Under the pieces are notes generated by a model. The model did no database searches. It worked only from the letters and a program-made list of their open reading frames with translations, and was not told where the DNA came from. The position numbers were made by a program, and so were the translations under genes. DNA of 64,000 nt, from sequence record OP114733; one strand, 5' to 3'. Shown one piece after another: positions 2,090 to 53,068 of this stretch. Position 1 is the stretch's first letter. Each line of letters starts with the position of its first letter. This DNA comes from Escherichia phage vB_EcoM-pEB20.

Positions 2090-3223
<1,134 letters not shown>

Positions 3224-10107: not shown

Positions 10108-10287
10108 ATGGCAAAACAAGCTAAAGCAAAGAAAGCAGTTGAAAAGAAAGTTGATGGTACCTCTAAACGCGCTGGATACAAGCGTGGGTCGAACTCTCGT
10201 ATTAATCAAACAGTTGAGAAGATCATGCGCAGAGCACGTGCAGTTCTTCGAGATGATGCTTCTCGTTTTGGAAAGGTTGTTGCATAA
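10108..10287 (+). CDS. Small basic hypothetical protein (59 aa; not in supplied ORF track)
   Basis: ATG at 10108 to TAA at 10285-10287, translating MAKQAKAKKAVEKKVDG...; followed by terminator hairpin. Confidence 0.5.
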   Translation: MAKQAKAKKAVEKKVDGTSKRAGYKRGSNSRINQTVEKIMRRARAVLRDDASRFGKVVA

Positions 10288-10292
10288 TTTTA

Positions 10293-10316
10293 GGGAGACT
10301 TCGGTCTCCCTTTTGT
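10293..10316 (+). terminator. Intrinsic terminator GGGAGAC-UUCG-GUCUCCC + UUUU
   Basis: Perfect 7-bp stem, UUCG loop, T-run. Confidence 0.7.
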
Positions 10317-10346
10317 GCGTTTAGGGCAGAAAAAGTTTAAAAAGAT

Positions 10347-10375
10347 GTTTACTCTCCTGTAGGATGTGTTACTAT
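10347..10375 (+). promoter_or_regulatory. T4-type early promoter (GTTTACT-N16-TACTAT)
   Basis: Read directly. Confidence 0.55.
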
Positions 10376-30975: not shown

Positions 30976-31974
30976 ATGTTTAAGAAATACAGCAGTCTTG
31001 AAAACCACTACAACTCTAAGTTTATTGAAAAACTCTACACTAATGGTTTGACTACTGGTGTTTGGGTAGCACGTGAGAAAATCCATGGGACCAACTTCTC
31101 GTTAATAATTGAACGTGACAACGTCACATGCGCCAAGCGCACAGGCCCTATTCTTCCAGCAGAAGATTTTTATGGTTATGAAATCGTACTCAAGAAGTAT
31201 GATAAAGCTATTAAAGCCGTTCAGGAATTCATGTACACAGCTCGAGCCGTATCATATCAAGTCTTTGGTGAATTCGCTGGTGGTGGAATCCAGAAAGGTG
31301 TTGACTACGGTGAAAAAGATTTTTATGTGTTCGATATCCTTATCAATACAGAAAGTGGTGATAATACGTATTTGACCGATTACGAAATGCAAGATTTCTG
31401 TAATGAATTCGGTTTTAAAATGGCACCAATGCTTGGACGTGGCACATTTGATGCTCTTATCATGATTCCAAACGACCTTGATTCTGTCTTAGCCGCTTAT
31501 AATGCTACTGCGTCAGAAGACCTTGTCGAAGCAAATAATTGCGTATTTGACGCTAATGTTATTGGCGATAATACGGCAGAAGGTTATGTTCTGAAGCCTT
31601 GTTTCCCTAAATGGCTGCCAAACGGTACTCGTGTAGCTATTAAGTGCAAGAACTCTAAATTCAGTGAAAAGAAAAAGTCTGATAAGCCTATTAAAACTCA
31701 GGTTCCATTAACCGAAATTGACAAAAACTTGCTTGATGTTCTAGCTTGTTATGTTACATTAAACCGTGTTAATAATGTGATTTCTAAGATTGGGACTGTA
31801 ACGCCAAAAGATTTTGGCAAAGTGATGGGATTGACTGTTCAAGATATTCTGGAAGAAACTTCTCGTGAAGGTATTGTATTAACATCATCTGATAATCCGA
31901 ATCTTGTTAAGAAAGAATTAGTCCGAATGGTGCAAGATGTTCTGCGTCCTGCATGGATTGAATTAGTATCATAA
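30976..31974 (+). CDS. rnlB: RNA ligase 2 (T4 gene 24.1)
   Basis: 332 aa; N-terminus identical to recalled T4 Rnl2 ([21 protein letters not shown]...[16 protein letters not shown]). Confidence 0.92.
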
Positions 31975-31976
31975 CG

Positions 31977-32008
31977 AAAAAAGGGACCTTACGGTCCCTT
32001 TGTTTTAT
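31977..32008. terminator. Bidirectional terminator AAAAA-GGGACC-UUAC-GGUCCC-UUUGUUUU between rnlB and gene 24
   Basis: Read directly. Confidence 0.7.
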
Positions 32009-33288
32009 TCATCAACAATAATTTTTGGTAGCTTAACACCTAATAAAACAGACAAATCTGAACGTCCTGCCATTTTATCCATGTCCCCACCATCAATTAT
32101 TCTCGCTTCTTTTTCATCTTTTGCTACTGTGTAAGGATTTGCTGATAAAGCATATCTAACCAATAATCCGATAGACGGTTGCAAGCTTTCTGGATCAACT
32201 ACAACTTTAAAAGCACCAACATGTTCCGGGTCATCTAAATCTACTCCTTCAGTGTATGGAGCATAAAAGATGGACCCTACAATTTCTTTTTCGCCGATAT
32301 TTTCTACAACACCCACAATAACATAATCTAATGGACTGTTGGTATCGCAGTAAAGAGGTAATCCATTTGCCAAGAATCCATAAGCATTTTGTGAAAGATA
32401 CTTGTCATCTTCTGGCTTATGTTTTAACCAACCGGAAGCAGCAAGAATAGCAGCTGCACGAGCTGAGGCTACACAAAACGTTGCAGTATAAGTTGTCTCT
32501 TTTTGAATGTGTGATACCATTTCACACACCATTCGATATAATGAACGACCTGCTTCTGGAGCGGATGCATAGCTCAAGTCAATAAATCCGGTGTCAGTAA
32601 TTCCAGTAACTTTATAACGTTTCGATACAGTAATTAAAGACTGAAGAATATCTTTATTAATTTCATCAGCCATTTCAGTAGCAAGCAAATCCTCTAAGAA
32701 GTTAGGGGCATCAAATCCATTCGCTTCCAAATCTTGCGCTAATTCAACCGTGAGACCAGTTTTAAGTTTGCGAGATTTGACTGAAGTTTGCCATTTATTA
32801 ATCTGGAATCTTGCATCAGAAATTTCGCTATCAGAGCTTTCAAATTTGCTTGTTACCGCTGCATCTGAAAATAACCGTACCTTTAAATGAACGACTGCAA
32901 TCTGAAGAGCTAATTCTAGATCACTTTCTTGAATATCTGCAAATGGTGTATCTTCTAACACTTTATAGACGATATTATTATATTTGAAAAAATCACCTTT
33001 ATTTAGTGTGACTTTTGATTCTTCTGTGAGCTCAGTAATTTTTTCTCGGTCTACATATCCAACTTCGCCAGCATAAGTAGCACCAGTTTTAAATGTAAAT
33101 TCATTGTCTGGGTTAAGATATTTAATACCATAAAAAGCAGCAACAGGTTGATTAGTTCTTTGTGTTGCTACAATGTCAGAATATATTAATTTAGTCGTAG
33201 CGCGAGTCAAAGCAACGAGATTTGGGCGGCCAATTGAGTTGCTAGTAGACGTTGTAGATTCACGCAATAATTTTTGGATTTTACTCAT
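32005..33288 (-). CDS. 24: Capsid vertex protein gp24
   Basis: 427 aa; matches recalled T4 gp24 N-terminus (LLRESTT..SNSIGRPNLVALTRATTKLIYSDIVATQRTNQPVAAFYGIKYLNPDNEFTFK). Confidence 0.92.
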   Translation of the reverse strand: MSKIQKLLRESTTSTSNSIGRPNLVALTRATTKLIYSDIVATQRTNQPVAAFYGIKYLNPDNEFTFKTGATYAGEVGYVDREKITELTEESKVTLNKGDFFKYNNIVYKVLEDTPFADIQESDLELALQIAVVHLKVRLFSDAAVTSKFESSDSEISDARFQINKWQTSVKSRKLKTGLTVELAQDLEANGFDAPNFLEDLLATEMADEINKDILQSLITVSKRYKVTGITDTGFIDLSYASAPEAGRSLYRMVCEMVSHIQKETTYTATFCVASARAAAILAASGWLKHKPEDDKYLSQNAYGFLANGLPLYCDTNSPLDYVIVGVVENIGEKEIVGSIFYAPYTEGVDLDDPEHVGAFKVVVDPESLQPSIGLLVRYALSANPYTVAKDEKEARIIDGGDMDKMAGRSDLSVLLGVKLPKIIVDE

Positions 33289-33315: not shown

Positions 33316-33323
33316 TATTTATA
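33316..33323 (-). promoter_or_regulatory. Late promoter TATAAATA (minus strand) for gene 24
   Basis: Forward tatttata about 28 nt upstream of the gene 24 start. Confidence 0.6.
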
Positions 33324-33329
33324 AAGATT

Positions 33330-33359
33330 GTTTACAACGTATTTGGTATGTGATACTAT
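33330..33359 (+). promoter_or_regulatory. T4-type early promoter (GTTTACA-N17-TACTAT)
   Basis: Read directly; drives the small plus-strand ORF inside the late head cluster. Confidence 0.6.
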
Positions 33360-33389
33360 AGACTTATCAACTACAGAGGAGTAAACAAA

Positions 33390-33659
33390 ATGACTAAAGC
33401 ACGTTTCTTACGAGATACTTTAAAAGTTCTAGAAGCTGAAGCAGTTAAGTTAGTAGAAAAATATGGTGCAAAAGTTAATGGTAATGCCTTCAACAAAGTA
33501 TGGATGAAAGTTGATTCTGAAGCTCGAGCTAAAGGTTATTGGGCCACTGATAAACTTGCATCATTCAAAAACAAAGATGGTTCTCCGGCATATGTCCAAG
33601 AAGGTATGCCTAATTGGCAAAATATTTTGAAAACTTACATCAAAATTGCACAGAAATAA
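33390..33659 (+). CDS. Hypothetical protein (89 aa) between genes 24 and 23
   Basis: GAGGAG RBS, own early promoter; occupies the position of segD in T4. Confidence 0.55.
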   Translation: MTKARFLRDTLKVLEAEAVKLVEKYGAKVNGNAFNKVWMKVDSEARAKGYWATDKLASFKNKDGSPAYVQEGMPNWQNILKTYIKIAQK

Positions 33660-33663
33660 AACC

Positions 33664-33687
33664 AAAAATGGGAGACCGAAGTCTCCC
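33664..33687 (-). terminator. Terminator after gene 23: GGGAGAC-UUCG-GUCUCCC + AUUUUU (minus-strand sense)
   Basis: Hairpin read directly; identical 18-mer to the plus-strand terminator at 10293. Confidence 0.7.
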
Positions 33688-33711: not shown

Positions 33712-35280
33712 TTAGATGCCTTTTACATATACACGGCGGAAGTAAGCGTTCTTACCAAGGCTGTTCAGGATAGACGGCATACCGGACTGGATGCGAGCAC
33801 CTGGAGCCTGCAGGGAACTTTCAGCAAACGGGTTAACACCGATACCGTAACGAGTTTTAAAGCCCATTACCGGCTGGAAGTTCTTAGGATCGGAACCACG
33901 CAGTGGGGTAAGTGCAACGTAAGGAGCATAGTAAATACCTGCATCCATTTCGTTAGCGCCTTTGTAACCAACGGTGAAGTAATCCTGTTTAGCATACTGG
34001 TCGATGTATACGCGGTATTTACCACCAAGTACACCGGCAAATACAGACTTAGTAGTGTCGGTATTAAAACCAGAAGCCAGACCCTGTGCAGCGTAAGAAA
34101 TACCAGTATCAACTGAAGCCAGTACGTTAACTACGTTACGGGAAGCGATAATGAAGTTACCTTCACCACGACCGGTTTGACGAGCAATTTCAACTGCTTC
34201 TTTATCAATCTGGAACAACAGAGCTTTAAAGCTTTCGCCGGCCCAACGAGCACCACGGATATCAATCGGGTCCTGGAAGTCAAATACACCAGCTTTAGAA
34301 CCAACGATATTAGTCATACCAGATTTACCAACCTGAGCGGAGTAGTTAATCCAGTCAACAACTTCACGGTTGATTTCCAGCATAATTTCAGTAGCAAGAA
34401 TACCACTCAGTTCAGCATCAGCATCCATACCGTGTACTGCACGGAGGTCTTGTGCCAATTCGATAGAGTAAGCTGCTTTCAGCTGACGAGATTTAGCTTC
34501 AATAACTTGTTTGTCGATACGGAAGCCCATTTCGTTCCACGGGTTGTCGGTAGAACCATTGAAGCCTTCCTGAAGTTCAGCGATAGAAGTAGCCATACCT
34601 TCAGCGATTTCTACCAGTGCGCCAGCTTCCATTTGTTTGATAATTTCTGCATCTAATTTAGCTGCATCATCAGCACTTGAACTAATTGTTACTTGAGCAG
34701 AAGCTTGCAGATATACAGTACCAGTTTCCTGGAAGAAGTGAGTATAGATATCACCTACTGTGGTTTGTGTGCTAGCAGCCAGAGCTGGGAATTTCTTAGC
34801 AGCACCCTGACCAGAGAACATCGCATCTGGAGCATACATCGGATGGAAAGCTTCTTTAGCGCCAGCAGCGATAGGGTCTTTACCATATACTGCACGGAGA
34901 GCAAATACCTGACCGGTAGGGCTGTTCATAGGCTGAACACCACAAATATCAAAAGCGATCAGATTAGGAATAGCACGACGAACCATACCCATAACTGCTG
35001 GCCCAATCTGGGTTACTGCACCAGAGGTTTGACCTGCTGCGATGTTCTGAGCATTATAACCATGGTCACCACCAATTTCAGCTTCGGTCAAGAAAGAACC
35101 AAATGCCTGAGCGATTTTCTCGTCTTTATATTCAGGGGATACTTCGAAATCTTTTTCCTGGTTTTCGAAGATTTTAGCGATAATAGCCTGCTTGCTATTA
35201 GCGATTTCCGGCAGGCCTTCACCTTCCAGCAGTTCTTTCCATTTGTCTACGAGCTGAGCTTTAGTTTTGATAGTAGTCAT
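33712..35280 (-). CDS. 23: Major capsid protein gp23
   Basis: 522 aa; T4 gp23-like N-terminus (MTTIKTKAQLVDKWKELLEGEGLPEIANSKQAIIAKIFENQEKDFE). Confidence 0.93.
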   Translation of the reverse strand: MTTIKTKAQLVDKWKELLEGEGLPEIANSKQAIIAKIFENQEKDFEVSPEYKDEKIAQAFGSFLTEAEIGGDHGYNAQNIAAGQTSGAVTQIGPAVMGMVRRAIPNLIAFDICGVQPMNSPTGQVFALRAVYGKDPIAAGAKEAFHPMYAPDAMFSGQGAAKKFPALAASTQTTVGDIYTHFFQETGTVYLQASAQVTISSSADDAAKLDAEIIKQMEAGALVEIAEGMATSIAELQEGFNGSTDNPWNEMGFRIDKQVIEAKSRQLKAAYSIELAQDLRAVHGMDADAELSGILATEIMLEINREVVDWINYSAQVGKSGMTNIVGSKAGVFDFQDPIDIRGARWAGESFKALLFQIDKEAVEIARQTGRGEGNFIIASRNVVNVLASVDTGISYAAQGLASGFNTDTTKSVFAGVLGGKYRVYIDQYAKQDYFTVGYKGANEMDAGIYYAPYVALTPLRGSDPKNFQPVMGFKTRYGIGVNPFAESSLQAPGARIQSGMPSILNSLGKNAYFRRVYVKGI

Positions 35281-53032: not shown

Positions 53033-53040
53033 ATTTATAG
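53033..53040 (-). promoter_or_regulatory. Late promoter TATAAATA (minus strand) for gene 9
   Basis: Forward tatttata about 35 nt upstream of the gene 9 start. Confidence 0.6.
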
Positions 53041-53044
53041 ATAC

Positions 53045-53068
53045 AAAAATGGGAGCCCGAAGGCTCCC
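53045..53068 (-). terminator. Terminator after gene 8: GGGAGCC-UUCG-GGCUCCC + AUUUUUG
   Basis: Read directly. Confidence 0.7.

Follow-up and report, generated by a model that had tools for sequence, protein, structure and literature searches.

In phage T4, the space between the late head genes 24 and 23 holds segD, a gene that runs antisense to both neighbours and encodes a GIY-YIG endonuclease of 223 aa. According to a review, no promoter specific to segD can be identified and vanishingly low transcript levels are expected (2010, PMC2988022). A multi-omics study of T4 nevertheless places segD in the class of early RNA and middle protein, and SegD was detected there by mass spectrometry (PMC9697503 supplements). 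In other T-even phages the same space is occupied by a small gene described as RB69ORF188c in RB69 and as orf173 (EpJS98_0173) in JS98, which both correspond to the protein family PHROG 6003. In the literature we found RB69ORF188c only in the context of genome annotation or a genome-comparison table, and our literature search found no RB69 transcriptome paper.

Here we describe this locus in a stretch of 64,000 nucleotides from Escherichia phage vB_EcoM-pEB20 (record OP114733), referred to as the window. The small ORF of the window is the same gene as RB69ORF188c and JS98 orf173 and does not differ from them in any substantive way: slot, orientation, promoter and hairpin are the same, and the protein is 35% identical to that of JS98. 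The T4 segD unit is alike in its slot, its antisense orientation, a promoter that aligns with ours column for column and the C(UUCG)G terminator of gene 23 at its 3' end, whereas its cargo, the endonuclease, is unrelated to the 89-aa protein of the window and stands in tandem with the small gene in some phages. The locus also resembles phage morons, as the unit is found in some phages and missing in others between genes that directly adjoin in relatives, has (at the level of sequence) a promoter of its own and has a hairpin alongside. In contrast to morons, the phage here is lytic and not a prophage, the unit is old and keeps its position across genera instead of being a recent insertion, and the hairpin is the terminator of the neighbouring gene, without a U-tract on the strand of the small ORF. 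The base composition is not atypical either (34.4% GC in the ORF versus 38.1% in the window), and we rejected a foreign composition for this reason. Intronless homing cassettes (segF-56, segG-32 and mobE-nrdB) are a third comparison: in them a free-standing endonuclease gene lies beside a co-transferred polymorphic marker, and mosaic boundaries are found at the site between near-identical genomes, as at our locus. They differ in that the window has no endonuclease gene and that SegD is reportedly non-homing in T4.

We consider it most likely, with a probability of about 0.6, that the locus is a self-contained early unit, antisense between the late genes 24 and 23, which would supply a dispensable accessory early protein from an exchangeable cassette.

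Genomic setting

Many Escherichia and Shigella phages assigned to Mosigvirus match the 601-bp stretch around the small ORF at 99.2-99.5% identity, and on this identity the window is assigned to a Mosigvirus, that is, an RB69-like T-even phage. In annotated relatives the gene order is rnlB (+), gene 24 (-), a hypothetical protein (+), gene 23 (-) and gene 22 (-). The original prediction, made from the bare sequence, had placed an 89-aa plus-strand ORF between the minus-strand genes 24 and 23; it was found there, and every element predicted with it was recovered in place or a few bases away (Table 1). Public Mosigvirus records already have annotations for the small ORF (as a hypothetical protein), for the early promoter and for the terminator, and only the allele dimorphism and the linkage to segD described below go beyond existing annotation. 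Gene 24 is present in single copy in the window; it is tandemly duplicated (24a/24b) in JS98-like phages (L003 of JS98, 1-2399; L012, 337-2901) and duplicated in Marfavirus Potts1 as well (L009, 2662-4766).

Table 1. Features of the gene 24 to gene 23 region, with positions counted in the window
Feature	Position	Strand	Basis
rnlB	30976..31974	+	ORF calls and annotated relatives
Gene 24, capsid vertex protein, left edge of slot	32005..33288	-	ORF calls and annotated relatives
Gene 24 late promoter TATAAATA	33316..33323	-	Sequence; annotated late promoter in OL960576
Early (sigma-70) promoter, T-even type	33330..33359	+	-35 GTTTAC 33330-33335, TG 33351-33352, -10 TACTAT 33354-33359
Shine-Dalgarno GAGGAG	33376..33381	+	8 nt upstream of ATG
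89-aa ORF, RB69ORF188c homolog (PHROG 6003)	33390..33659	+	ORF call, profile match
Gene 23 intrinsic terminator, C(UUCG)G hairpin then U-tract	33670..33687	-	Sequence, folding
Gene 23, major capsid protein, right edge of slot	33712..35280	-	ORF calls and annotated relatives

The small ORF as a coding gene

The predicted protein matches the PHROG 6003 profile over its whole length (E 2.9e-45; residues 1-89 against profile positions 1-90 of 90) and is 98-100% identical to annotated Mosigvirus proteins; the copy in phage PhAPEC2 is annotated as 'similar to RB69ORF188c'. With tblastn, the small ORF was found in 240 phage records, which fall into two types: about 120 carry the type of the window at an identity of at least 80% (M type) and about 120 the type of JS98 orf173 at 31-37% identity (D type). 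For the pairs in which dS is not saturated, dN/dS (Nei-Gojobori) was 0.14 for JS98 against phage 04086, 0.25 for JS98 against locus L015, 0.11 for 04086 against L015 and 0.12 for the window against locus L012. Judged from these sequence comparisons, the small ORF is a genuine coding gene under purifying selection.

In T4-like phages, the homologs with 35-72% identity are without exception placed between gp24 and gp23 and antisense to them, and the metagenomic members (61-72% identity) lie between two Gp23-family genes, likewise on the opposite strand. The sole member outside this slot is found in the non-T4, Vequintavirinae-like phage ABPH49; because it sits there among small hypothetical genes, the family seems to be of an early or accessory type rather than associated with the capsid. 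About 7 genuine clusters came out of an exhaustive HMM search over 1.84 billion representative proteins, and IMG/VR added 6 loci, all from isolate genomes. From the HMM search we discarded the long proteins P0018, P0020 and P0022 as repeat artefacts that match in 4-9 stretches, and P0021, a 160-aa product of a chimeric contig in which a D-type fragment is fused to unrelated sequence. Across these sequence collections, the family is confined to T-even coliphages and the one Vequintavirinae-like phage. In the Mosigvirus mogra (L017, 301-569), the loss of one nucleotide in an A5 run breaks the ORF in two, and another 1-nt deletion is found in a T-run upstream of the ORF; the frameshift may stem from a homopolymer sequencing error, or else it is a natural knockout and a sign of dispensability.

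Early promoter and leader

Both signals that had been proposed in front of the ORF, a near-consensus early promoter and a strong GAGGAG ribosome binding site, are present. The promoter is a perfect match to the phage's own early-promoter pattern GTTTAC-N14-NTGNTAYTAT, which occurs five times in the window where 0.12 would be expected by chance, each time on the plus strand, which is the early-gene strand there. A generic promoter scan reads the same site as TTTACA-17-TACTAT with an extended -10. The -35, TG and -10 elements are conserved in 8 aligned loci including T4, while the 14-nt spacer varies, and this very site is annotated as early in OL960576 and, in phage SA79RD, as a T4-like early promoter. 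The start site is predicted near 33366, which gives a leader of roughly 24 nt, and the GGAG core of the Shine-Dalgarno sequence is kept in homologous loci. Upstream of T4 segD (L006, 2734-2823, minus strand), the sequence aligned to the small-ORF promoter reads ATTTAC-N14-ATGATATTAT, and the T4 leader ACAAACGGAG resembles the leader of locus L015. An early-type promoter conserved between T4 segD and the small ORF would explain the early class of the segD RNA. In terms of its sequence, the small ORF is an autonomous gene that has an early-type promoter and runs opposite to the late genes 24 and 23 on either side, and its early expression can be expected from the promoter sequence together with the analogy to the segD RNA of T4.

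The late promoter of gene 24 is invariant in the 8 aligned loci. Only 6 bp separate it from the early -35 on the opposite strand, so the late and the early promoter stand back to back, an arrangement that the original prediction had missed.

The hairpin at the 3' end

The hairpin downstream of the ORF had been taken for the gene 23 terminator, identical to a second copy in the window, and this was confirmed. On the gene 23 strand, the 18-nt hairpin GGGAGAC-UUCG-GUCUCCC (33687..33670) is followed by UUUUUGGUUUU; it has the make-up of an intrinsic terminator, with an 8-bp stem, a UUCG loop and then UUUUUGGUUU, directly after the stop codon. The minus-strand fold has an energy of -16.1 kcal/mol and a z-score of -4.2, and it is the sole terminator called in the region. 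An exact copy lies at 10293-10310 on the plus strand, where 0 copies would be expected by chance, and a relative with 2 mismatches at 53051-53068 on the minus strand, where none would be expected either.

Read on the plus strand, the same hairpin folds with -13.5 kcal/mol and is followed by AAAAUAAGAUUU and not by a U-tract. For this reason it does not qualify as a canonical terminator of the small ORF, and from its sequence it would at most act as a weak stop or as a 3' stabiliser of the small-ORF mRNA. No plus-strand terminator was called at the 3' end of the small ORF, nor before about 34772. A bidirectional terminator was rejected on these two grounds, and without a U-tract on the plus strand, transcripts probably run on to some extent antisense to gene 23.

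Around the other copies, a 59-aa, very basic ORF (10108..10287, plus strand) stops just before the exact hairpin copy, and an early-type promoter (GTTTAC ... TACTAT, 10346-10374) directly follows it. The order of C(UUCG)G terminator and early promoter recurs in the genome, since it is seen in 10108-10374 too. At 53034-53068, a GGGAGCC-UUCG-GGCUCCC hairpin on the minus strand adjoins a minus-strand TATAAATA; this layout is that of a terminator and late-promoter junction, as in an empty space between genes 23 and 24.

Anti-late RNA made early in infection is well established in T4. As an alternative, the unit could function as RNA: transcription from the early promoter antisense into gene 23 would produce an anti-late RNA or interfere with the late promoter, so that the capsid genes stay silent early, with the ORF being secondary. 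The plus-strand hairpin without a U-tract, the lack of a plus-strand terminator call over the distance given above, the 6-bp spacing to the divergent late promoter and the retention of the promoter even in T4, where the cargo differs, are all in line with this. They are met by purifying selection on the amino acids (dN/dS 0.11-0.25) with conserved length and motifs, by a strong and conserved Shine-Dalgarno sequence and by the occurrence of the family outside the capsid context in ABPH49. Moreover, about 500 Tequatrovirus records are without the whole unit, and regulation of genes 23 and 24 thus does not need it. We regard a function at the level of RNA as improbable compared with an early unit that is kept for its protein.

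Predicted properties of the protein

All members of the family are basic (pI 9.5-9.9; about 9.8 in the window) and hydrophilic, with no Cys and no hydrophobic segment. AlphaFold2 with an alignment of 10 sequences gave a model with a pLDDT of 89.6 and a pTM of 0.77, in which helices at residues 3-25 and 31-48 are followed by a beta-hairpin at 56-70 and a third helix at 76-88. The invariant residues are found in the loop between the first two helices (G26, N30-G31-N32-A33 and N35) and at W51, G64 and Q70, the conserved motif of the loop being NGNAxN.

The original prediction spoke of a small protein that is not an endonuclease, and this agrees with the Pfam search, which gave no GIY-YIG or HNH domain in the 89-aa protein. 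The only Pfam signal was DUF4859, at 17.9 bits against a gathering cut-off of 22.6, and it was absent in five other members. Searches of NCBIfam and PADLOC gave nothing meaningful, a sequence-profile search of the PDB nothing under E 0.1, Foldseek against the PDB nothing at E <= 0.001, and Rfam no match near the gathering score. Against BFVD, Foldseek returned one match, an unnamed viral protein of 88 aa with 32% identity that is probably a member of the family. The homology and structure-prediction searches, which had been suggested as a check, thus lead to PHROG 6003 and to a confident fold, and to no relative of known function.

Occupancy of the space between genes 23 and 24

Comparison of the 23-24 intergenic region across relatives, the other check that had been suggested, revealed four states: empty, small ORF alone, small ORF with segD, and segD alone. 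The empty slot is a spacer of 83-92 bp with only the terminator and the late promoter, as in Tequatrovirus DalCa, Karamvirus myPSH1140 and Marfavirus Potts1, and the empty Tequatrovirus junction was found at an identity of at least 95% in about 500 records. The small ORF occupies the slot in Mosigvirus, Dhakavirus and some Tequatrovirus-like phages. It stands alone in the window, in about 120 Mosigvirus records, in most Dhakavirus and in Tequatrovirus G28, and in tandem with segD in about 38 phage records. The JS98 homolog agrees with that of the window in slot, orientation and promoter layout, and the hairpin there is identical. T4 and about 53 records (at least 95% identity) have segD alone, which is found in T4 in the slot that the original prediction had named and in the orientation of the small ORF; the T4 arrangement may be a derivative that has lost the small ORF.

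The tandem state is seen in the Dhakavirus phage 04086 (L004), where the small ORF (2501..2767) is followed 3 nt on by a gene whose 223-aa product has 57% identity to T4 SegD, then by the same hairpin and by gene 23. From this arrangement, segD is inserted exactly between the stop codon of the ORF and TAGAAACAAGAATGGGAGACC. In the public record of 04086 (L004, 2771-5061), the segD homolog is unannotated, gene 23 is truncated and a spurious plus-strand ORF is called, and in the record of ATK47 (L024) gene 24 is mislabelled 'homing endonuclease'. In Tequatrovirus G28 (L025, 1950-2216), a D-type ORF with JS98-like intergenic DNA lies between T4-like genes 23 and 24.

As the slot holds segD in T4, the ORF might be what is left of a homing endonuclease gene, or spurious, and BLASTP against T4 SegD does align 17 residues locally (E 0.022 as a single comparison). 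This match is not significant, and it stands against the missing GIY-YIG and HNH domains, a dN/dS far below 1 and a confident, independent predicted fold. Together with the purifying selection, the tandem of the small ORF with an intact, full-length segD in one slot rules out the endonuclease remnant, whose probability we put close to nil; of the possible refutations named for the original prediction, that by a degraded endonuclease gene was thus not what we found. The prediction had also likened the locus to a moron or a remnant of mobile-element traffic. The comparison with morons holds in part, as most Tequatrovirus records and the one Karamvirus and one Marfavirus inspected have an empty spacer in the same place, and the mobile-element traffic applies to the slot; the ORF itself is no remnant, being under purifying selection, conserved in the slot across genera and found beside an intact segD.

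Exchange of alleles and linkage to segD

The M and D alleles are about 35% identical, and each is found in both Mosigvirus-like and Dhakavirus-like backgrounds. Between the window and JK45, protein identity is 99.8% in gp24 and 97.7% in gp23 and only 31.8% in the ORF product, and between JS98 and locus L012 it is 93.9% and 91.9% around an ORF product with 29.5%. The converse is seen between JK45 and 04086, where the ORF products are 100% identical between gp24 of 67% and gp23 of 84% identity. With near-identical capsid proteins flanking divergent ORFs, and conversely, the two alleles segregate independently of the capsid genes. NCBI taxonomy lists JK45 (L020) and F2 (L021) as Tequatrovirus; the high identity of the JK45 capsid proteins to those of the Mosigvirus window points to a possible taxonomic misassignment, judged on this region alone.

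Three phages classified under Mosigvirus, mobillu, AV109 and ATK47, nevertheless have the D-type ORF with segD. Compared with this cassette in other records, theirs shows 97% identity, and the ORF within it matches those of Dhakavirus JS10, AnYang and C6 at 97-99%. On the left side the junctions vary: in mobillu (L018, 3588-4520) the promoter is of the window type up to ...TTATCAA and the switch falls between the transcription start and the ribosome binding site, whereas JK45 (L020, 3405-4494) resembles the D type from just past the start of gene 24. On the right side the divergence reaches about 100 nt into the 3' end of gene 23. When a synthetic JK45 sequence with segD removed was used as the query, the D-type ORF was found together with segD between Mosigvirus-type flanks in about 30 records, and without segD in one, SQ17. 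The region of SQ17 (MW882907, 106383-107220), with Mosigvirus-type flanks, the D-type ORF and no segD, was matched as a single BLAST piece. The M allele (about 120 records) was never seen with segD, and in Dhakavirus most copies of the D type are without it. At the level of sequence, the distribution of the foreign allele fits co-conversion linked to segD.

Such linkage could also mean that the small ORF is a passenger of segD, being kept and spread mainly by co-conversion with it, or carrying or adjoining the SegD target, and contributing little by itself. The 3 nt between the stop codon of the D-type ORF and segD, the promoter and hairpin that the two have in common, the nearly complete association with segD in Mosigvirus flanks, the close identity (97-99%) of the cassette in those phages to Dhakavirus DNA and the variable left junctions, as co-conversion tracts would leave, would all be expected of a passenger. 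The segD-free M allele and the many Dhakavirus copies of the D type without segD would not, and both types are under purifying selection. SegD, moreover, reportedly does not home in T4 crosses, going by the title of Sokolov et al. 2018, a reference given in PMC10448857. The chance that the ORF is little more than a passenger seems small to us. Both this and the antisense explanation are weakened by the constraint on the amino acids, by the many phages without the unit and by the M allele free of segD, and we prefer an accessory early gene in an exchangeable cassette.

A more far-reaching version of this is possible, though we find it rather doubtful. The unit would then be an early gene with two alleles, M and D, that is exchanged among Mosigvirus, Dhakavirus and Tequatrovirus, with SegD driving D into M genomes such as that of the window by co-conversion and with the alleles being alternative specificities of a factor for host interaction or counter-defence.

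Discussion

Taken together, the small ORF is, at the level of sequence, a real, conserved and syntenic gene with a conserved promoter and ribosome binding site, located in a slot with cassette exchange and physical linkage to segD. On the reading that we favour, host sigma-70 RNA polymerase would start at the early promoter in the first minutes of infection, and the short leader with its strong Shine-Dalgarno sequence would allow translation of the 89-residue, basic and presumably soluble protein. The terminator hairpin of gene 23, in its reverse sense, would define the 3' end of the mRNA or stabilise it. The protein may bind a host or phage macromolecule, for which the invariant NGNAxN loop is a candidate contact site, and by analogy, its most likely role would be in host take-over or counter-defence. 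As the gene is absent from T4 and most Tequatrovirus, the protein is likely to be dispensable for a life cycle of the T4 type, and it is therefore read as an accessory early factor. The unit as a whole would be an exchangeable cassette whose M (window) and D (JS98) alleles move between genera, and segD, where it inserts between the ORF stop codon and the hairpin, would share its promoter.

As stated, the finding matters very little: its elements are annotated already, and the protein is one of many uncharacterised early ORFs of T-even phages. The slot, on the other hand, is a clear natural case of cassette exchange, in which near-identical capsid genes surround alleles that are 30-35% identical and the foreign one is almost always linked to segD. 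Co-conversion driven by SegD and the function of the small protein can both be tested directly with existing isolates. If the exchange of alleles is driven in this way and the alleles are alternative specificities as proposed, it would mean that a homing endonuclease spreads an adaptive early gene and not only itself.
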